Shown: positions 5,624-49,684, counted from the stretch's first letter. The stretch is DNA of 64,000 bases from an uncultured Clostridia bacterium (GCA_934643825.1 CAKUCW010000003.1:19320-83319), one strand, 5' to 3'. Numbers and translations: made by a program. The notes: generated by a model not told the origin, from the letters alone.

Positions 5624-5850
5624 CGCTTGTTTTTATTGATTTTTTTGACACGAATTTCGGCGATTTTGACTCAAAAAATTCTCAAAAAACGGGCAATGAA
5701 AAATTTTTTCACGCTCATAAAAATATTTATTTTACAAAATACGGCCGTCATCTTTCGTCCTTTCTACAACGGATGCCCTGTTTTCCCTTCAAAAATTCCA
5801 TACTTGATATTCAATATTCCTTTTGCTGCCCGCTTTCCTTTTTCAGCCGG

Positions 5851-5879
5851 TTGCGCATCTTGCCCCTTCGTGATACAAT
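5851..5879 (+). promoter_or_regulatory. Sigma-A type promoter for the secreted-protein gene
   Basis: TTGCGC, 17 nt, then TACAAT preceded by TGa (extended -10). It lies about 38 nt upstream of the ATG at 5917. Confidence 0.5.
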
Positions 5880-5916
5880 GAGGCTTAACAACGCAAACAT
5901 TGTGAGGTTACCGATT

Positions 5917-6705
5917 ATGAAACGTCTTTTCGCGTTCTTTCTTTTCCTGCTTCTTCTCCCCTGCGCGGCGCTGGGCGAATCGCTCTCGCTCGATGACCTG
6001 AGCGACGCGCCGGAGGTGCAGACTATCGACTATATCCCCGACACGCAGGACGCCGCCGTAACGGGCGACAGCGCCGCACGCGAGGATTGGATCGACCGCA
6101 TCATTGCGCTCGCGCAGACGCTTTATACGCAGGCAAACGGACGCGCCCAGCGTGCGCAGTACAGCGGCGACATCTACGTCTGCAAGAACTTCACCGTTCA
6201 TCTCTTCCGCGAAACCTGCGGGGATTTCCGCATGGCGGAGTATCCCGATGTACCGCTCGTCATCCCCAACAACCAGACGAAAGCGGACTGTGCGCCCTAT
6301 GTCTACGGCGTAGAATGGCAGGATATCCCCGCCAGCGAGGGCAATCCGTTTTACGCGGCGGCAACTTTCCGCTATGACGACAGCCTGAGCAAGGAAGAAA
6401 ACCGCGAAAAGGCTCGCGAGTTTCTCCGGCAGGTCAAGCGCGGCGATTACTTCCAGATGGCGGCGAATTACTACTACGGCGTCGGCGCACACAGCATGAT
6501 CTTCATCGCCGATTACGACCCACAGACGGATACCGTTCACTGGGCAGATTCCAACATGAAGGGAAAGAGCGTAAGCGGCGTTCGCTACGCCTACGTTCAG
6601 TTTGACGCAGAAAAGAACATCGACTGGTTTGTCGATGCGTTTTGCCGAAAGAAATACGGCGCAACGATCTATCGTCTGCGCGATGACATCATCTACGCAA
6701 ACTAA
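5917..6705 (+). CDS. Secreted hypothetical protein (signal peptide)
   Basis: An internal ATG follows a GTGAGG RBS. MKRLFAFFLFLLLLPCAALGESL is a signal peptide. The track ORF start at 5518 would add about 130 aa of AT-rich non-coding-looking sequence. Confidence 0.65.
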   Translation: MKRLFAFFLFLLLLPCAALGESLSLDDLSDAPEVQTIDYIPDTQDAAVTGDSAAREDWIDRIIALAQTLYTQANGRAQRAQYSGDIYVCKNFTVHLFRETCGDFRMAEYPDVPLVIPNNQTKADCAPYVYGVEWQDIPASEGNPFYAAATFRYDDSLSKEENREKAREFLRQVKRGDYFQMAANYYYGVGAHSMIFIADYDPQTDTVHWADSNMKGKSVSGVRYAYVQFDAEKNIDWFVDAFCRKKYGATIYRLRDDIIYAN

Positions 6706-8401: not shown

Positions 8402-9142
8402 TCATGATTTTCTTGCTTTTATCAGTAAAAAATCCGGTTTATGAAGCAAATCCTTGTAATGCGGATACTTTTCAAGCAGTTCATCCGTCGGCAGCGGCTC
8501 GATCATTTTTTCAATCGTAAAGCCTTCTTCTATCAAAGTATTCACGATCGTAGAGAATGTTCGATGATACTTTTTAACGTTCTCAATAAACCACTCCGAT
8601 TCTCTTTCTCCTTCAACGCTGTAATACGCAAGGTTTAAATGCACTTTATTTCCATTTTCATCCTTCGTCCATCGGTTGCCGCCCGAATGGCATGTGCATA
8701 ATGGATTTTCTTGCGAGAAAATAAGCACGCCTTTCTCCTCCAGCAAGTTATGCACATCTCGGATTACTCCCCTAAAATCCTCAACATAATGAAACGCCAG
8801 TGAACTGACCACAACATCAAACGTTTCCTGTAACTGCGCTATTTCCTCCATCGGCATATGAATATATCTTATTTTTGAATCAGAATTTTCAGTCCTTGCC
8901 ACTTCCAGCATCTTCTGAGATATGTCAATCCCAACGACTTTTTCTGCTCCATAATCAACGATCTTTTTACAATGCTCTCCGAATCCGCATCCCAAATCCA
9001 GAACTCTTTTTCCTTTCAATTCGGGCATCATGGAAAACAACGCAGGAATTTCAAACAAATTGTTTGCGTTGACCTGATTATCCCTTATTTTCTTATACCC
9101 TGAAAAAAACACTTCATCGTCGTATATATTCTGCCGAGCCAT
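8402..9142 (-). CDS. Class I SAM-dependent methyltransferase (low-GC gene)
   Basis: 246 aa with the SAM motif I VLDLGCGFGEHC. The gene and its flanks are visibly AT-richer than the neighbours. Confidence 0.85.
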   Translation of the reverse strand: MARQNIYDDEVFFSGYKKIRDNQVNANNLFEIPALFSMMPELKGKRVLDLGCGFGEHCKKIVDYGAEKVVGIDISQKMLEVARTENSDSKIRYIHMPMEEIAQLQETFDVVVSSLAFHYVEDFRGVIRDVHNLLEEKGVLIFSQENPLCTCHSGGNRWTKDENGNKVHLNLAYYSVEGERESEWFIENVKKYHRTFSTIVNTLIEEGFTIEKMIEPLPTDELLEKYPHYKDLLHKPDFLLIKARKS

Positions 9143-26149: not shown

Positions 26150-26584
26150 TCAGAAATTCCCCATTGTCAGTTGTTCTCCCGCCTTGTCTTCATCCAACTG
26201 ATGCTTTATGTACTCCTCGATTTTCTTTGCATTCTTCCCTACTGTATCCACATAGTACCCTCTGCACCAAAACTCTCTGTTCCGGTATTTGTACTTTAGT
26301 TCTGGATACTTTTCGTAGATCATTAAACTACTTCTCCCTTTTAAATACCCTACAAAACTTGATACAGATACCTTGGGTGGAATCTTTACTAACATATGTA
26401 CATGATCTTTACAGACTTCGGCTTCCACTATTTCGATTTTCTTCCAATCACATAGCATCCTTAGTATTTTTCCTATCTCTACTCTCTTTTCCCCGTAGAA
26501 TACTTTTCTTCTGTACTTAGGCGCAAATACAATATGGTATTTACATTCCCACTTCGTATGTGATAAACTATTCATGTCGTTCAT
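26150..26584 (-). CDS. tnpA: IS200/IS605 family transposase TnpA (Y1 HUH)
   Basis: 144 aa. SHTKWECKYHIVFAPKYRRK...DHVHMLV...YLKGRSS...FWCRGYYVDTVG carries the HUH motif and the catalytic Tyr region. Confidence 0.92.
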   Translation of the reverse strand: MNDMNSLSHTKWECKYHIVFAPKYRRKVFYGEKRVEIGKILRMLCDWKKIEIVEAEVCKDHVHMLVKIPPKVSVSSFVGYLKGRSSLMIYEKYPELKYKYRNREFWCRGYYVDTVGKNAKKIEEYIKHQLDEDKAGEQLTMGNF

Positions 26585-43081: not shown

Positions 43082-43339
43082 TCAAAAGAGTTTTGCATAT
43101 CTTCTTCGTGTAGCTTCTCCGCCGCGCAGATGGCGTTCTGCCTTATTGCGTGCCAGCACAGCGGAAACCTCTTTATAAAGCGGTGCGGACAAATCCGAGA
43201 GCCGCGTTTCCATATCCTTATGCACAGTCGATTTAGAGACACCCATCACATCAGCTGTCTTTCTTACCGTAGCGCCCGTCGCGGCGATATATTCCGCCTC
43301 CAGCAGCACCCTGCGCTCGATCGCCTGATTCACGCGCAT
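43082..43339 (-). CDS. spoIIID: Stage III sporulation protein D (SpoIIID) transcription factor
   Basis: GATVRKTADVMGVSKSTVHKDMETRL...AERHLRGGEATRRRY closely parallels B. subtilis SpoIIID (...FGVSKSTVHKDLTERL...HLRGGEATK). Confidence 0.88.
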   Translation of the reverse strand: MRVNQAIERRVLLEAEYIAATGATVRKTADVMGVSKSTVHKDMETRLSDLSAPLYKEVSAVLARNKAERHLRGGEATRRRYAKLF

Positions 43340-43493
43340 CCCCCCAGACAGTCTTGGCAATCCGGGCTATCCTATGCGGGAAAACGCGTTTCTTGACATC
43401 CTTAACCCTATTATCATATCGCAGGGCAGGAAAATCGTCAAGGGGACGATTGGGGAAAACGGCGGTGTGAAGCGATTCGTGAGACGGTTTTTT

Positions 43494-43750
43494 TGGGGCT
43501 TTGCCCCAAACCCCACCAAGAACCTGAGGTTCTTGGATTTCCCGCTACGCTATCGGCGTACGACATGGGGCTTTGCCCCAAACTCCACCCAAGAACCTGA
43601 GGTTCTTGGATTTTCCGCTACGCTGTCTCTTTGCGACAGCTGATGGTTGACGGAATACGACATGGGGCTTTGCCCCATACCCCACCAAGAACCTGAGGTT
43701 CTTGGATTTCCCACTACGCCGTCGCTTTGCGACAGCGGACGGCTGTTCAG
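43494..43750 (+). repeat. Three head-to-tail copies of the mosaic hairpin repeat (unit about 70-95 nt)
   Basis: The core (AT)GGGGCTTTGCCCCA(A/T)A(C/T)(C/T)CCACC(C)AAGAACCTGAGGTTCTTGGATTT(T)CC(G/A)CTACGC starts at about 43494, 43566 and 43662. Copies 2 and 3 add a CTGTC(T/G)C-TTTG-CGACAG hairpin. Confidence 0.9.
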
Positions 43751-43755
43751 GCATC

Positions 43756-43782
43756 AAAAAACCTCTCCGGCAGTCGGAGAGG
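43756..43782 (-). terminator. Rho-independent terminator of truA
   Basis: The minus strand reads CCTCTCCG-ACTGC-CGGAGAGG followed by TTTTTT, 6 nt after the truA stop. Confidence 0.85.
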
Positions 43783-43787
43783 TCAGC

Positions 43788-44621
43788 TTATTCAAAATAC
43801 CCCAGTGCCTTTTCTTCATCGCCATCGTAAAGCACGCGCATCAGCGCCAGACCGCAAGCGGGCGCGGTCTGCCCGAGAGCCAGACGGTCTCCGGTTTCAA
43901 TGGCTTTTGCAATACAGCCCATCTCACGTTTACCCATACCGACTTCCATCAGCGTGCCGGCGATGATGCGAACCATATTATACAGGAATCCATCGCCCAG
44001 CACCGTCAGCACAACATCGTCGCCGCATCGCCTGACCTGTGCGCGATAAAGGGTGCGTACCGTGCTTTTTGCAACGCTTCCGCTGGCGGCAAATGCCGCA
44101 AAATCGTGCTTTCCGCAAAGGCTCTGCGCCTCTGCGTCCATCTTTTCGGCATCCATGAGAACCGGCACATGCGCCTTATACTGTCTGCCGATGGCGCACA
44201 TCTGCCGCTGGTTATAAAACGTATAGCGATAAACCTTTCCGCAGGCGGAAAAACGGGCATGAAAGCCATCCGGCGCCGCCGCGCTCTCCCGGATCCGGAT
44301 ATCGGGCGGGAGCATGGTATTCAGCGCAAAGCTCACCTTATCCGGCGGAATGCGGCTCGCGCTGTCAAAATGAGCGCAAAGCCCGAAGGCATGAACGCCC
44401 GCATCCGTTCGGCTCGACCCTGTGACGGCAATCTTCTCCCCCGTCAGCCGGGAAAGCGCCTCCTCCAGCGTCTGCTGAACGCTCGGGCCGTTGATCTGCC
44501 TCTGCCAGCCGCTGTACGCCGTGCCGTCATATTCGACAACGAGCTTAAAACGCCGCTGTTCCTCGGGCGGATGATCCGCAGGGCTGGGAATGTGGTGGCT
44601 TTGCAGCTTAAACTCAGCCAA
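43788..44621 (-). CDS. truA: tRNA pseudouridine(38-40) synthase TruA
   Basis: FKLVVEYDGTAYSGWQRQ...GSSRTDAGVHA (catalytic Asp). The start is uncertain: I favour TTG 44621 after GGAGGG, while the track gives 44651. Confidence 0.85.
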   Translation of the reverse strand: MAEFKLQSHHIPSPADHPPEEQRRFKLVVEYDGTAYSGWQRQINGPSVQQTLEEALSRLTGEKIAVTGSSRTDAGVHAFGLCAHFDSASRIPPDKVSFALNTMLPPDIRIRESAAAPDGFHARFSACGKVYRYTFYNQRQMCAIGRQYKAHVPVLMDAEKMDAEAQSLCGKHDFAAFAASGSVAKSTVRTLYRAQVRRCGDDVVLTVLGDGFLYNMVRIIAGTLMEVGMGKREMGCIAKAIETGDRLALGQTAPACGLALMRVLYDGDEEKALGYFE

Positions 44622-45420
44622 GGAGTCTGCCCTCCGCAAAGATAACGGCAAGGAACGCCGCCATCGCCATCGCGCCGAACAGATCCAGCTTCGTATACTT
44701 CAGCTCGCGCAGGCGCGTGCGGTGGTCGCCGCCGTGGTAGCAGCGGGCTTCCATCGCCATCGCCAGCTCATTGGCGCGGCGGAAGGAGCTGACAAACAGC
44801 GGCACAAGCAGCGGAATCATCGCCTTGGCGCGGGCAATGAGGTTGCCGCTCTCAAAATCCGCACCGCGTGCCATCTGCGCCTTCTGAATCTTATCGGTTT
44901 CTTCCAGCAGCGTCGGGATGAAGCGCAGCGCGATGGTCATCATCATCGCCAGCTCATGCGCCGGGAAATGAATCTTCTCCAGCGGATGCATGATGCGTTC
45001 CAAGCCGTCGGTCAGCTGCACCGGGCTGGTCGTCAGTGTCAGCACAGACGTGCCCATGACCAGGAACACCAGTCTGAGCGCAAAGAAAACCGCGTTATGC
45101 AGCGCTTCCCGCGTCAGGGTGAAAAAGCCGAGCGTAAACAACGGCGTTTCGCCCTGCACAAAGAACAGGTTCAGCACAAATGTAAAGATGATGATGAACC
45201 GAAGGGGCTTGATGCCCTTGAGCAGATAAGAAAACTTGATGCCCGAAATGCGCACCACGATATACAAAAACAGCAGCGCGATGGCATAGCCCGGCAGATT
45301 GCCCACGCAGAACACGCCGACGATATACAAAATCGTCAGGATGAGCTTCATGCGCGGGTCCATGCGATGGATGGCGGAATCTCCGGGGAAATACTGTCCC
45401 AGCGTGATATCGTTAAGCAT
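44614..45420 (-). CDS. ecfT: ECF transporter transmembrane (T) component EcfT
   Basis: The internal start MLNDITLGQYFPGDSAIHRMDPRMK follows GGAGG. The conserved ...ARGADFESG... motif (Ala-Arg-Gly) is present. 268 aa. Confidence 0.85.
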   Translation of the reverse strand: MLNDITLGQYFPGDSAIHRMDPRMKLILTILYIVGVFCVGNLPGYAIALLFLYIVVRISGIKFSYLLKGIKPLRFIIIFTFVLNLFFVQGETPLFTLGFFTLTREALHNAVFFALRLVFLVMGTSVLTLTTSPVQLTDGLERIMHPLEKIHFPAHELAMMMTIALRFIPTLLEETDKIQKAQMARGADFESGNLIARAKAMIPLLVPLFVSSFRRANELAMAMEARCYHGGDHRTRLRELKYTKLDLFGAMAMAAFLAVIFAEGRLLG

Positions 45421-46279
45421 GGCGACCTCCCTTTCCGATGGCGGCTTCAACCGCTGCGCGGACTTCATCCATCCGGTAAATGCCTTCCGGAATGTCGAAT
45501 CCCTTTTCGCGGAGTTTCTGCGCCAGCTCGACCGCCTGCGGCACATCCAGACCGATGGCACGCAGTTCCTCGCCCTTCGCGAAGACCTCGCGGGGCGTTC
45601 CATCCATGACGACGCTGCCGTGATTCATGACGATGACGCGCTCAGCCAGCGCCGCCACGTCATCCATCGAGTGGCTTACCATGACGATGGTCGCGCCGGA
45701 TTCCCGGTGCAGGTCGCTGATCAGCCCGAGAATTTCTTCCCTGCCTCGCGGGTCAAGCCCGGCGCACGGCTCATCCAGCACGAGCGTCTGCGGCTCCATC
45801 GCCAGCACGCCCGCAATCGCGACGCGGCGCATCTGTCCGCCCGAAAGCTCAAACACGGAACGCTCGGCAATCTGATCGTAATCCAGCGCAACGCGGCGCA
45901 TCGCCGTGCGCACGCGGCGGTCGATCTCCGCCTCGTCCAGCCCCAGATTCTTCGGTCCGAAGGCGATATCCTTCTCAACCGTTTCTTCAAACAGCTGGTT
46001 TTCCGGATACTGGAAGACCAGACCGACGCGGCGGCGAATGGCACGCCTGTCCGTATTCTTATCCGCCAGATCCAGCCCATCGACCAGAACGCGTCCGCTC
46101 GAAGGCATGATCAGTCCGTTCAGATGCTGCACAAGGGTGGATTTTCCGCTGCCGGTATGACCGATCAGACCGATGAACTCGCCGTCGTTGATCGTCAGGG
46201 ACACGTCATTCAGCGCCTTCGTTTCATACGGACCGCCCTGCATGTATACATAGTTCAAATGCTCGATGACAATCGACAT
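45413..46279 (-). CDS. ecfA2: ECF transporter ATPase EcfA2
   Basis: GHTGSGKST, LSGGQMRRVAIAG, LVLDEP. It has the characteristic EcfA C-terminal helical extension. Confidence 0.9.
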   Translation of the reverse strand: MSIVIEHLNYVYMQGGPYETKALNDVSLTINDGEFIGLIGHTGSGKSTLVQHLNGLIMPSSGRVLVDGLDLADKNTDRRAIRRRVGLVFQYPENQLFEETVEKDIAFGPKNLGLDEAEIDRRVRTAMRRVALDYDQIAERSVFELSGGQMRRVAIAGVLAMEPQTLVLDEPCAGLDPRGREEILGLISDLHRESGATIVMVSHSMDDVAALAERVIVMNHGSVVMDGTPREVFAKGEELRAIGLDVPQAVELAQKLREKGFDIPEGIYRMDEVRAAVEAAIGKGGRHA

Positions 46280-47106
46280 ACTTCCTCCACCATCTCGTCC
46301 ACAGTCAGCACATCCGCCCGCACGTCCACGCCGTCCGCACGCAGCATATGCGCCAGATCCGTCATCGGCGGTACGTCAAGCCCCAGTGCGCGAACCTGAT
46401 CCACCTTGGTGAAAACCTCACGCGGCGTTCCGCTCATGGCAATCCTGCCCTCGTCCATGACGATCATATAATCGGCGGTCGCGGCTTCGCTCATGTAGTG
46501 GGTAATGATGACGACGCTGATGCCCTCTTCCCGGTTGAGCCTGTGAACCGTATTCATGACCTCGCGCCGTCCGCTCGGGTCAAGCATAGCGGTCGATTCA
46601 TCCAGAATGATGACATCCGGCTTCATCGCCAGCACGCCCGCGATGGCGACGCGCTGCTTCTGTCCGCCGGAGAGCATGTGCGGCGCTTTCTTGGCGAACT
46701 GGCTCATTTGAACCGCGGCAAGCGCTTCATCGATGCGCACGCGAATCTCCTTGGGCGGCACGCCGTTGTTCTCCAGCCCGAACGCGACATCCTCTTCGAC
46801 GACCGTCGCGACAATCTGGTTATCCGGATTCTGGAAAACCATGCCCGCATGCTGACGGATATCGAAGACGAGATCGTCGTCACGCGTATCCATGCCGACG
46901 ACCCACACCGTGCCCTCCGAAGGCACATACAGCGCGTTGAAGAGCTTGGCAAGCGTCGATTTGCCGCTTCCGTTATGACCGAGTATCGCGAGGAACTCGC
47001 CCTTCTTTACGCGCATGTTCACATGATCCACCGCGTTTTTCTCCGCTTCCGGGTAGGCGTAGCAAAGCTCGCTGGTGATGATGCGGTTATCTTTCAGATT
47101 TGACAC
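46255..47106 (-). CDS. ecfA1: ECF transporter ATPase EcfA1
   Basis: GHNGSGKST, LSGGQKQRVAIAG, IILDES. The start is GTG 47106, 6 nt after GGAGGAA. Confidence 0.9.
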   Translation of the reverse strand: MSNLKDNRIITSELCYAYPEAEKNAVDHVNMRVKKGEFLAILGHNGSGKSTLAKLFNALYVPSEGTVWVVGMDTRDDDLVFDIRQHAGMVFQNPDNQIVATVVEEDVAFGLENNGVPPKEIRVRIDEALAAVQMSQFAKKAPHMLSGGQKQRVAIAGVLAMKPDVIILDESTAMLDPSGRREVMNTVHRLNREEGISVVIITHYMSEAATADYMIVMDEGRIAMSGTPREVFTKVDQVRALGLDVPPMTDLAHMLRADGVDVRADVLTVDEMVEEVCRLSSSI

Positions 47107-47126
47107 TGACCATTCCTCCGTGTACT

Positions 47127-47165
47127 GAAAACAGCGCCCCAAAAACTTCCGTCTTTGGGGCGCTG
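47127..47165 (-). terminator. Riboswitch expression-platform terminator
   Basis: The minus strand reads CAGCGCCCCAAA-GACGGAAGT-TTTGGGGCGCTG followed by TTTTC. It ends about 20 nt before the ecfA1 RBS. Confidence 0.85.
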
Positions 47166-47188
47166 CAAAAGCATAGCAAATAGATGCC

Positions 47189-47302
47189 GTCCTCTTCCAT
47201 CCAGACTATACTGTCGGTTTCGGAATTTCGCCGAATCGAGGGTCACTTGACCCGTCGCGGACTATACCGCCGGTCGGGAATCTCACCCCGCCCTGAAGAC
47301 TC
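47189..47302 (-). promoter_or_regulatory. FMN riboswitch (RFN element) aptamer
   Basis: The minus strand reads GUCUUCAGGGCGGGGUGAGAUUCCCGACCGGCGGUAUAGUCCGCGACGGG...CCGACAGUAUAGUCUGGAUGGAAGAGGAC. This matches the invariant RFN cores and the P1 closure. Confidence 0.92.
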
Positions 47303-47306
47303 ACTG

Positions 47307-47315
47307 ATTATAGCA
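47307..47315 (-). promoter_or_regulatory. Extended -10 promoter (TGcTATAAT) driving the riboswitch leader
   Basis: The minus strand reads ATGCTATAATCAGTGAG, with the aptamer P1 starting 6-7 nt after the -10. Confidence 0.6.
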
Positions 47316-47359: not shown

Positions 47360-48304
47360 TTACTGGTTGAAGGTGACAACTTCCTCTTCCGGCGGCTGAG
47401 CCGGCTCAACCTTGGTCACATACAGCACGGGTCCGACGCCCTTATACTGTTTGCGCTCCTCCGCCCTGACCTCAGCGGTGATCATCTGCCACGTCTTGGG
47501 CTGGGGAATCGGCTGACCGTTCGCCTTGGCGATAAAGCCGACAAAGCGCACGTCTTCCGCGCAGCAGACCATGCCCATACGACCCGGCACATACTCGTCC
47601 TGGCCGATGTTGCGGCCGCGGTAGATATAGCCCTTGAAGCGAACCGTCTTTCCGTCGTAATCCTCAGGATTTTCGGACGCGTCGAGGTAGAAAATGCCGA
47701 AATGGCGATCCTCAATCTCAATCACGGGCGCATCCATGTCGTAGGGCGGCGGCATGCCCGCGCCGTAATCCTCGCTGGTTCCGTCGTCGTTTTCAAAATA
47801 GAGCGACGCCTGCGGGTTCATGCTGCGCACGTTGCGGTCGCGGATGAGCTGGCGCGTTTCCTCCGTTGCGCGGTTGAAGACGACCATGTCCGCATCGGTG
47901 ATATGCTGAAGCATGCGCTGACCCATGTTTTTGGCATAGAGGTCAAACGTTTCCGCATTCACCGTCGTGATGATCTGGTAGATTTCCAGCACCTTGGGCG
48001 TGCGTCCAATCGCCGCATCCAGATCCCACATGCCGTTCATCTCGATGATCACGCGGTCGGGGTGATGCTTGCGCACGAACGCCCGCAGGGTTTCTTCGTT
48101 ATATTCGTCCTCGTCCTCGATGCACTCCACGACGCTGTGCGTCTTCTTGAGCATATCGGGTTCGTATTCCGTTTCGCCCTCTTCACACTGAATGATGAGC
48201 GTATTCTCATCGCGTGTGAAGCCCGGATCCTGCAATACGCTGGCGATAAAAGAGGTCTTGCCGCTTTCAAGGAAACCGGCAAACATGTAAACCGGAATTG
48301 CCAT
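47360..48304 (-). CDS. G3E/COG0523-related P-loop protein with degenerate metal motif, fused to a DUF1980/YcgQ-like C-terminal domain (CC..D motif)
   Basis: MAIPVYMFAGFLESGKTSF is the P-loop, and IIQCEEGE replaces the GCICC motif. The C-terminus ...GRMGMVCCAEDVRFVGF resembles the TIGR03943/DUF1980 domain (from memory). Confidence 0.7.
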   Translation of the reverse strand: MAIPVYMFAGFLESGKTSFIASVLQDPGFTRDENTLIIQCEEGETEYEPDMLKKTHSVVECIEDEDEYNEETLRAFVRKHHPDRVIIEMNGMWDLDAAIGRTPKVLEIYQIITTVNAETFDLYAKNMGQRMLQHITDADMVVFNRATEETRQLIRDRNVRSMNPQASLYFENDDGTSEDYGAGMPPPYDMDAPVIEIEDRHFGIFYLDASENPEDYDGKTVRFKGYIYRGRNIGQDEYVPGRMGMVCCAEDVRFVGFIAKANGQPIPQPKTWQMITAEVRAEERKQYKGVGPVLYVTKVEPAQPPEEEVVTFNQ

Positions 48305-48317
48305 TTTGTTCCTCCGA

Positions 48318-49532
48318 TCAGGCGACGCCGAACAGCTGCGCCAGCTTCTCATCCGCCAGCTTGCTGCCGATTACGCACAGGCGGCCGGTGTAGTCCGCCG
48401 GACCCTTGCGGATATTCTGCTCGCCCGGGGTGTAGTCAAAGTGGATCCAGCCGCCGTCCGCGCAGGGCACGATGCCCTTCGCACGCAGAACCATGCCGTA
48501 CTCGCCGTCATCCAGCTTCGCCAGCATGACAGACAGCTCGTTCTCGCCAAACACGCGAACCGTTTCAACGCCCCAAGAGGTAAACACCTCATCGGCGTCA
48601 TGTCCGTGATGATGGTGATGATGACCGCAGCTGCAAACGCCGTTCTCATCATAGTGATGATGATGCTCATGCTCATCATGCTCGTCATGGTCATGATGAT
48701 GCTCGTGCTCATGTTCATCCTCATCCTCGTCATGATGGTGATGATGCTCATCCTCATCCTCGTCATGATCGTCGTGGGCATGATGGTGATGATGCTCATG
48801 CTCATCCTCATCCTCATCTTCGTCATGATCATCGTGGTCATGATGATGGTGATGGTGGCAGCACTCGTCCTCATCCTCGTCCTCGTCGCCATGCTCAGCC
48901 ATGACGACCGCCAGCATATCCTGCGCAAGGTTATGGTCGTCCTGCATCGCGGAGAGGATGGTCTCGCCGCTGATTTCATCCCACGGCGTGGTGATGATAC
49001 GCGCCTTCGCGTTATGCTCACGCAGGAGCGCAACGACCGCCTCCAGCTTCTCCTGGCTCATGCCCTGCGTGCGGGAGAGCAGGATCGTGCCGGCGTATTC
49101 AATCTGGTTGAGGAAGAACTCGCCGAAGTTCTTGACATACATGCGGCACTTGCCCGCGTCCGCGACAGTCACGAAGCTGCCCATGCAGGCTTCCGGAATA
49201 TCCTTCTCCACGCCTTCGACCGCACGGATGACGTCGGAAAGCTTGCCGACTCCGCTCGGCTCGATGAGGATGCGGTCCGGATGATACTGGTCGATGACCT
49301 GACGGAGTGCCTTGCCGAAATCGCCGACCAGCGAGCAGCAGATGCAGCCGGAGTTCATTTCCGTCACCTGAATGCCGGCTTCCTTCATGAAGCCGCCATC
49401 GATACCGATCTCGCCGAATTCATTTTCAATCAGAACAACTTTCTCGCCGGAAAGCGCCTCTTTAAGCAGTTTCTTGATGAGCGTGGTCTTGCCAGCGCCA
49501 AGGAAACCGGAAAAAATATCAATTTTCGTCAT
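48318..49532 (-). CDS. COG0523 (CobW/ZigA/YeiR-type) metallochaperone GTPase with a roughly 100-aa His/Asp/Glu-rich insertion
   Basis: GFLGAGKTTLIKKLL (P-loop), SGCICCSL (CxCC motif), then HGDEDEDEDECCHHHHHHDHDDHDEDEDEDEHEHHHHH...GHHHHHHGHD before the CobW_C-like domain. Confidence 0.85.
   Translation of the reverse strand: MTKIDIFSGFLGAGKTTLIKKLLKEALSGEKVVLIENEFGEIGIDGGFMKEAGIQVTEMNSGCICCSLVGDFGKALRQVIDQYHPDRILIEPSGVGKLSDVIRAVEGVEKDIPEACMGSFVTVADAGKCRMYVKNFGEFFLNQIEYAGTILLSRTQGMSQEKLEAVVALLREHNAKARIITTPWDEISGETILSAMQDDHNLAQDMLAVVMAEHGDEDEDEDECCHHHHHHDHDDHDEDEDEDEHEHHHHHAHDDHDEDEDEHHHHHDEDEDEHEHEHHHDHDEHDEHEHHHHYDENGVCSCGHHHHHHGHDADEVFTSWGVETVRVFGENELSVMLAKLDDGEYGMVLRAKGIVPCADGGWIHFDYTPGEQNIRKGPADYTGRLCVIGSKLADEKLAQLFGVA
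48603..48900 (-). repeat. Low-complexity CAT/GAT/GAG-rich DNA encoding the His/Asp/Glu tract
   Basis: Runs of catgatgatg and catcctcatcctcgtc. Long spurious ORFs appear in other frames of this tract. Confidence 0.8.
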
Positions 49533-49684
49533 ACAGAGCATCTCCTTATGGGGTTACGATTGGGTAACGTTATGTTGTGGCATCGCGCAGCGGATCGTTC
49601 TTTTGCCGCAGCCCGATTCCAAACGCATATTGTACACCGTTTTTCGGGAAAAAACAAGGATTTCGGAAGAAAAAACAAGGTTGG

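Follow-up and report, generated by a model that had tools for sequence, protein, structure and literature searches.

Which genes are governed by an FMN riboswitch that is not followed by a riboflavin gene? This question is raised by a 64-kb stretch of DNA from an uncultured Clostridia bacterium (hereafter the window, 64,000 nucleotides in length), in which an RFN element was proposed to precede ecfA1-ecfA2-ecfT-truA, the energizing module of ECF transporters. In Firmicutes, the shared ecf module is generally regarded as constitutive and mostly found in linkage with the ribosomal-protein genes. To our knowledge, the riboswitches described for ECF vitamin uptake are situated either on an S-component or on a dedicated operon. 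The proposal that the riboswitch of the window controls the ecf operon rather than a riboflavin gene was borne out by the promoter, the aptamer, the terminator and the lack of a rib gene. We consider it likely that the leader is a functional FMN-dependent OFF switch, which acts by transcription termination on ecfA1-ecfA2-ecfT-truA, and that the module is shared by RibU and other S-components. In silico, this reading is supported by the identity of the aptamer, the promoter, the terminator, the antiterminator, the structure of the operon and the conservation of the arrangement.

Identity of the aptamer

Judged by its sequence, the RNA upstream of ecfA1 is a clear member of the RF00050 family (FMN riboswitch aptamer). 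The covariance model matched the minus strand at 47304-47185 with 109.5 bits (gathering score 66.2, E 1.4e-24). The alignment covers model positions 1-138 and thus the whole model without truncation, and the aptamer is the sole Rfam match in the window. With a clade-specific covariance model (R1), it scored 138.7 bits. The six-helix junction, the conserved cores and covarying helices were recovered in 21 aligned sequences. All core blocks are identical in these sequences (alignment A1), and the stems show compensatory changes (GGGTC/GACCC, GGATGG/CCATC, GGGGGAC/GTCCCC; TTCGG/CCGAA versus ATTGG/CCAAT). Four independent assemblies carry the leader of the window at 98.4-99.6% identity, so that it is no assembly artefact. 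Accordingly, the RFN element assigned to the minus strand by the initial annotation was recovered at full length. Of its suggested borders, 47302 and 47189, the latter is correct, since the 3' strand of P1 and with it the aptamer end there (...GAAGAGGAC), while the former is off by 2 nt, as P1 begins at 47300. The closing helix with GUCUUC was read as described (Table 1). Binding of FMN by this aptamer is predicted.

Table 1. Features of the riboswitch leader and of the ecf operon (positions in the window)
Feature	Position	Strand	Basis
Extended -10 promoter element TGCTATAAT	47307..47315	-	sequence reading
FMN riboswitch aptamer (RFN element), full length	47185..47304	-	RF00050 covariance model
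P1 5' strand GUCUUC	47300-47295	-	sequence reading
Antiterminator 5' half GUCUUCAGGGCG (P1 5' strand + J1/2)	47289..47300	-	complementary to 47162-47151
Antiterminator 3' half CGCCCCAAAGAC (part of terminator 5' arm)	47162-47151	-	complementary to GUCUUCAGGGCG
Intrinsic terminator	47128..47165	-	fold: stem 47165-47151 / 47146-47132, loop GGAA 47150-47147, U-run 47131-47128
Shine-Dalgarno GGAGGA of ecfA1	47114..47119	-	sequence reading
ecfA1, ECF transporter ATPase, 283 aa, GTG start	46255..47106	-	TIGR04520, 391.7 bits, cutoff 315
ecfA2, second ECF ATPase, 288 aa	45413..46279	-	TIGR04521, 398.2 bits, cutoff 330
ecfT, transmembrane coupling component, 268 aa, ATG at 45420	44614..45420	-	PF02361 CbiQ, 167.8 bits
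truA, tRNA pseudouridine(38-40) synthase	43788..44651	-	TIGR00071, 190.5 bits, cutoff 142.85; PF01416
Operon-end intrinsic terminator, 10-bp stem then TTTTTTGATG	43750..43784 (also given as 43784-43760)	-	terminator scan

Promoter and expression platform

The extended -10 element TGCTATAAT is located 6 nt 5' of P1, which agrees with the distance of 6-7 nt reported previously for the motif TGcTATAAT. Its -35 region is weak (TTTCCT, 17-nt spacing). A generic sigma-70 scan of the window did not list this promoter, due to the poor -35. In all 15 riboswitch loci that were inspected, TGnTATAAT or a near variant (e.g. TGATATACT) occurs within 60 nt 5' of P1. The distance between promoter and P1 amounts to 6-9 nt in 13 of them and is greater in L012 and L037.

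The aptamer is followed by a hairpin with a U-run, as had been noted, though not by one of 12 bp, because folding yielded a stem of 15-16 pairs including G-U and A-U. Nor does the U-run end about 20 nt before the Shine-Dalgarno sequence of ecfA1. The true spacing is 8 nt, and a value of about 20 nt corresponds to the distance to the start codon (21 nt from the U-run to the GTG at 47106, with 7 nt between the Shine-Dalgarno sequence and the GTG). A spacing of 8 nt leaves no room for an independent promoter 3' of the switch. In an alignment of all 21 leaders (A2), terminator pairing was found in 98% of the alignment cells compared to 41-54% in slid controls, and one pair (151/183) is AU in 11 sequences and GC in nine.

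Part of the 5' arm of the terminator is complementary to the 5' strand of P1 and the adjoining J1/2. The energies of this antiterminator duplex range from -20 to -25 kcal/mol in most loci, and its pairing was found in 90% of the alignment cells (38-55% in slid controls). A swap from G:C to C:G occurs in L037/L038, and only one pair shows changes on both sides. Covariation therefore lends weak support to the antiterminator, since its aptamer half is nearly invariant for reasons of the aptamer itself. When the nascent RNA was folded only as far as the loop of the terminator, the antiterminator emerged as the unconstrained minimum free energy (MFE) structure (-57.4 kcal/mol), while enforcement of P1 resulted in -47.8 kcal/mol, which is about 9.6 kcal/mol worse. 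By contrast, the complete leader adopts the aptamer together with the terminator (MFE -78.0 kcal/mol). The fold check proposed along with the initial annotation thus revealed mutually exclusive structures that are coupled to P1, as anticipated for an OFF switch under kinetic control. The leader resembles in this respect that of B. subtilis ribD (ribDEAHT), in which a promoter-proximal aptamer is likewise followed by a terminator, and the P1 5' strand can pair with the 5' arm of that terminator instead. In both leaders, the global minimum lies in the OFF state. The ribD FMN riboswitch reportedly is a kinetically controlled transcription terminator. What separates the two systems is the target, riboflavin biosynthesis in the case of ribD and a transporter module in the window.

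On this basis, the following mechanism may be proposed. Transcription would start approximately 6-7 nt 3' of the extended -10. Binding of FMN to the nascent six-helix aptamer would close P1 and leave the 5' arm of the terminator free to form the hairpin of 15-16 bp, and RNA polymerase would stop 8 nt before the ribosome binding site of ecfA1. When FMN is scarce, GUCUUCAGGGCG would pair with CGCCCCAAAGAC, and the resulting antiterminator would permit read-through into the four genes. In vivo, falling flavin would then lead to more EcfAA'T energizing module and to a greater capacity for RibU-dependent riboflavin uptake, while leaky termination may maintain a basal supply of the module for other substrates. 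TruA would be produced from a co-transcribed passenger gene.

The ecf operon and its neighbourhood

The assignment of the four downstream genes was corroborated by family models: EcfA1, EcfA2 and TruA scored above their TIGRFAM cutoffs, and EcfT was recognised by PF02361. The length of the EcfA1 product is common to most homologues among the matches listed. EcfA2 was additionally matched by NF010158 (424.8 bits, cutoff 390), and its gene shares 25 nt with the 3' end of ecfA1. The ecfT product reached only 81 bits with TIGR02454, a score under the cutoff, and is therefore not a CbiQ equivalog. For truA, the coordinates refer to the longest ORF. The TIGR00071 alignment begins at residue 33, and the real start is probably located some 30 codons inside this ORF. 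The frames of ecfA1, ecfA2, ecfT and truA overlap or abut.

EcfA1, EcfA2 and EcfT are thus encoded together, as in group II modules, and in Firmicutes the shared housekeeping module (group II) has its genes arranged in this order, truA included. The ecf operon is a subject of PMC8046335. Gene order and gene families are the same as in the housekeeping ecfA1-ecfA2-ecfT-truA operon. However, the latter is usually linked to the ribosomal-protein cluster, whereas the operon of the window follows a cobW-like gene and possesses, in part of its clade, a metabolite-sensing leader.

Two adjacent genes of the CobW family are situated immediately 5' of the riboswitch (48318-49541 and 47360-48352, both on the minus strand). 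One of them encodes a ZigA/CobW-like GTPase with an insert of about 100 residues rich in His, Asp and Glu. The product of the other combines a CobW nucleotide-binding domain with DUF1980_C and matches the C-terminal part of TIGR03943 ('putative permease subunit'). At the other end of the operon, the truA terminator is directly followed by spoIIID (43082-43360, minus strand; PF12116, 102 bits) with a promoter-like site at 43441-43413, and next by an mreB/mbl-like gene (43043-41946). This neighbourhood points to a sporulation-capable lineage.

S-components and the probable sharing of the module

Reading of the sequence between the riboswitch and ecfA1 revealed neither an ORF nor ribU, in keeping with the earlier statement that no RibU-type ORF or rib gene lies there. 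The ORF and Pfam screen together with tblastn for RibU detected no S-component, ribU or rib gene in the window. Approximately 10 kb past each of its edges were likewise devoid of rib, ribU and S genes and of a further FMN aptamer. In the clade relatives, no S-component or RibU was found within 6 kb of ecfA1 (TM-ORF screen, tblastn). The genuine PDB chains 3P5N_A and 5KC0_A served as RibU probes, and tblastn with them detected no RibU in the window or in any of 80 loci retrieved with EcfA1. Apart from EcfT and unrelated membrane proteins, the TM-ORF screen of these 80 loci yielded a single S-component candidate in L059, a distant Clostridia MAG. It is a QueT S-component gene (L059:8255-8857; PF06177, 160 bits) located immediately 3' of ecfT, and no preQ1 or other riboswitch was found within the retrieved locus.

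The transcription unit hence comprises only ecfA1, ecfA2, ecfT and truA, and in the window, beyond its edges and in the 80-locus screens no S-component gene was detected in or next to the operon of the window and its clade. This corresponds to group II and not to group I, where the S-component is part of the riboswitch-controlled operon. The catalogued FMN regulon would require a gene for riboflavin biosynthesis or transport downstream of the element. Such a gene is missing here, which concerns the content of the regulon and not the RNA family. Since the operon has no S-component of its own, the module most likely serves RibU and S-components encoded elsewhere, as judged from the operon architecture and prior knowledge.

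On the other hand, the module might in practice be dedicated, with RibU, encoded elsewhere, as the only or overwhelmingly dominant S-component, in which case the ordinary logic of the RFN regulon would apply. FMN regulons normally contain riboflavin biosynthesis or transport genes only, and riboswitch control of ecfA/ecfT is otherwise known only for dedicated cases (TPP, thiW-ecfAAT). Moreover, no other S-component was detected within about 84 kb around the locus, but this says little because 84 kb represent a few percent of the genome. The operon has the housekeeping architecture, with equivalog-level EcfA1 and EcfA2, linkage to truA and no S gene, which argues against a dedicated function. 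In addition, Clostridia with group II modules usually possess several S-components. Finally, about half of the close species have the same operon without the FMN element, a finding that is harder to square with a tight FMN regulation. A dedicated module is therefore regarded as unlikely, and sharing by RibU and other S-components remains the preferred reading.

Conservation in relatives and metagenomes

The 80 loci are species representatives. The closest named relatives of the window are 'Candidatus Ventricola' and 'Candidatus Onthenecus', some MAGs being labelled Christensenellales/Christensenellaceae; all of these are Clostridia of the gut that have not been cultured. In a search of the 80 loci with a covariance model derived from the aptamers of the clade, the FMN element was detected in 20 of them, always on the ecfA1 strand and directly 5' of ecfA1. 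The alignment of the ecfA1 upstream region, suggested earlier as a check, thus showed the same leader in one quarter of the species genomes. All element-bearing loci belong to a single clade ('Candidatus Ventricola'/'Onthenecus', Christensenellales-like), and the scan yielded no FMN element at loci with less than 73% EcfA1 identity. All 11 relatives tested passed the RF00050 threshold (105-117 bits). Promoter, aptamer and GC-rich terminator with U-run are common to the window and the 15 loci inspected in detail, and the parts of the leader have been kept with compensatory changes over EcfA1 identities from 73% to 99%. Metagenomes were scanned for the 3' core of the aptamer followed by TTTT and an EcfA-type Walker A motif. 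This pattern returned 18 contigs, all of which contain the aptamer, and in 17 of them EcfA1 is 81-100% identical to that of the window. Among the contigs with informative names, most originate from the human gut.

The eighteenth contig, L087 (66% EcfA1 identity), was rejected as an independent lineage outside the clade, being chimeric or recombinant. Clade-like sequence in L087:1-3272 comprises the C-terminal end of the upstream gene, the first (5') half of ecfA1 and the riboswitch, which is identical to that of the L089-L101 group; the 3' half of ecfA1 as well as the N-terminal ~183 residues of the upstream gene are unlike the genes of the window. Another peculiarity is the MAG SUG1048 (JALFVL01), which contains two ecfA1-A2-T loci (L025 and L080) with 84.5% nucleotide identity. 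The riboswitch belongs to L025; L080 is truncated within ecfA1 and shares 90% identity with L017 and L020. Either the bin is a mixture or two paralogous modules are present in it.

In L002-5, L015 and L023, the spacers are long (214-459 nt) due to hairpin-rich repeat elements inserted 3' of the terminator. Remnants of ribU in these spacers were discounted, as repeats occupy them and tblastn for RibU was negative. REP/MITE-like hairpin repeats with motifs such as GGGGTCTGGGGATGAAATCCCCAGA, GGGCGATAGCCC and GCGCGAAGCG recur in the spacer between the cobW-like gene and ecfA1 in this clade. They were found at positions 5690-6000 of both L007 and L008, and also in L022, L039, L076 and L013; between terminator and ecfA1 they are present in L002 (5500-5745), L003, L004, L005, L015 and L023. 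The exact 25-mer of the repeat is confined to L007 and L008, and the window contains no copy at up to three mismatches.

Relatives without the switch and its probable loss

Close relatives that lack the switch have retained the cobW-like gene in synteny, and ecfA1 begins 10-30 nt past its stop codon or is separated from it by a repeat-filled spacer. The short distance suggests that ecfA1 is co-transcribed there with the upstream cobW-like metal-chaperone operon. As about half of the close relatives manage without the element, the control is dispensable, and FMN control may be of modest physiological weight. Replacement of the FMN element by another riboswitch was ruled out, since a scan of 11 switch-less close relatives and 37 distant Clostridia loci detected no Rfam cis-regulatory RNA. 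Within the sampled loci, riboswitch control of ecfA1-ecfA2-ecfT-truA is confined to this clade.

When mapped on a query-anchored tree computed from the joined EcfA1, EcfA2 and EcfT sequences, the switch occurs in L037/L038, which branch off deepest within the clade, as well as in many crown lineages. The switch is missing in the outgroups and in several interspersed lineages. This distribution is most simply explained by a single early gain and three or more later losses. Loss is also in line with L035, where the terminator hairpin is still recognisable without U-run or aptamer (score 40 versus 21.9 +/- 3.4 for the null). Putative leader relics in L032-34, L036, L040 and other switch-less relatives were indistinguishable from shuffled controls.

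The patchy distribution, which fits repeated loss, and the decayed terminator of L035 are also compatible with the idea that a ribU or rib gene formerly separated the riboswitch from ecfA1 and has since been deleted, the leader now attenuating the ECF operon without an adaptive role; the FMN-ribU arrangement is, after all, common in Firmicutes. However, no ORF or ribU fragment is present between switch and ecfA1 in the 20 genomes and 18 metagenome contigs. Furthermore, the functional parts are intact and show compensatory substitutions over the whole range of EcfA1 identities, which indicates purifying selection in exactly this context, and where the element was lost it has been removed outright and did not degrade slowly. 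The suggestion that a leader was left behind after loss of ribU is thus disfavoured by the conservation of its parts in 20 species and by the repeat content of the long spacers, and we regard it as very improbable. Equally improbable is a mere insulator, whose terminator would block read-through from the cobW-like metal-chaperone operon with an incidental response to FMN, because, despite the probable co-transcription in switch-less relatives and the weak terminator-like hairpin of the upstream gene (47357-47336, terminator scan), a plain terminator would suffice for this purpose, yet the aptamer, the conserved antiterminator and a dedicated promoter have all been kept.

Comparison with known systems

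To date, the FMN-regulated genes listed by the RegPrecise comparative study are those of riboflavin biosynthesis plus ribU, impX, pnuX, ribX and ribY, and ecfA/ecfT occur there only in the TPP regulon of Chloroflexi, in operons that include the S-component thiW (PMC3766115). A survey of riboflavin transporters guided by FMN riboswitches assessed the ECF system through RibU only (PMC4418817). In C. difficile, FMN riboswitches are located 5' of ribU, ribDEBAH and CD3299 (PMC11477304). An FMN riboswitch on an ecfA/ecfT module is described neither in these two studies (PMC3766115, PMC4418817) nor in the full-text literature searched. The objection considered along with the initial annotation, namely that the arrangement might already be a common, documented member of the RFN regulon, was thus not borne out by these sources.

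The FMN-ribU systems (ypaA of B. subtilis, CD0147 of C. difficile) share with the present one the RF00050 aptamer, a logic by which ECF riboflavin uptake would increase at low FMN and their occurrence in Firmicutes. Their switch, however, acts on the S-component and affects riboflavin only, whereas here it precedes the A1-A2-T module and truA without an S gene. Transcription of ECF A and T genes is controlled by a coenzyme riboswitch in the TPP-dependent thiW-ecfAAT (Chloroflexi) and ykoEDC operons and in the cobalamin-dependent cbiMNQO operon as well. These dedicated operons include their own S-component (ThiW, YkoE, CbiMN) and are substrate-specific, unlike the operon of the window, which contains no S gene and whose ligand would be FMN. 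Among the known systems, TPP-riboswitch control of thiW-ecfAAT comes closest. The RNA family is known, and the ECF energizing operon is a new target class for the FMN regulon.

Possible consequences of flavin control

The data suggest that flavin status sets the amount of the importer engine in cells of this clade. It is conceivable, though a more tentative assumption than the switch itself, that flavin status gates all ECF-dependent micronutrient uptake through one shared EcfAA'T and, in addition, tRNA pseudouridylation by TruA. If so, the uptake of folate, biotin, thiamine, pantothenate, queuosine precursors and others would be affected, which would amount to a hierarchical cross-vitamin regulation exploiting the competition of S-components for limiting amounts of the module. 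A shared engine under the control of a conserved FMN riboswitch would not only extend the FMN regulon to this new class of targets but also imply that a single vitamin regulates how abundant the module is, and every competing S-component would be affected in turn. It would offer a concrete way of asking whether vitamin uptake is limited by the amount of the module, and it would have a bearing on vitamin cross-feeding in the human gut, the home of these uncultured organisms. In that case, compounds that target FMN riboswitches, such as roseoflavin or ribocil-type ligands, could suppress the uptake of several vitamins at once in bacteria of this kind.

Further observations

An additional flavoprotein with FMN_bind and FAD_binding_2 domains (flavinylated fumarate-reductase-like) is encoded at L085:1938-3746, on a contig close to the right flank of the window. 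Its gene is missing from the otherwise syntenic loci L084 and L086, and it may bear on the flavin demand in this group. Within the window, two ORFs on the minus strand (26150-26584 and 8402-9142) stand out by a GC3 of 0.42-0.43 compared to about 0.65-0.8 in their neighbours. The former resembles by eye the IS200/IS605 transposase TnpA (MNDMNSLSHTKWECKYHIVFAPKYRRK...), and the latter encodes a class I methyltransferase according to a Pfam match of the identical gene in L081. Both ORFs were probably acquired horizontally.
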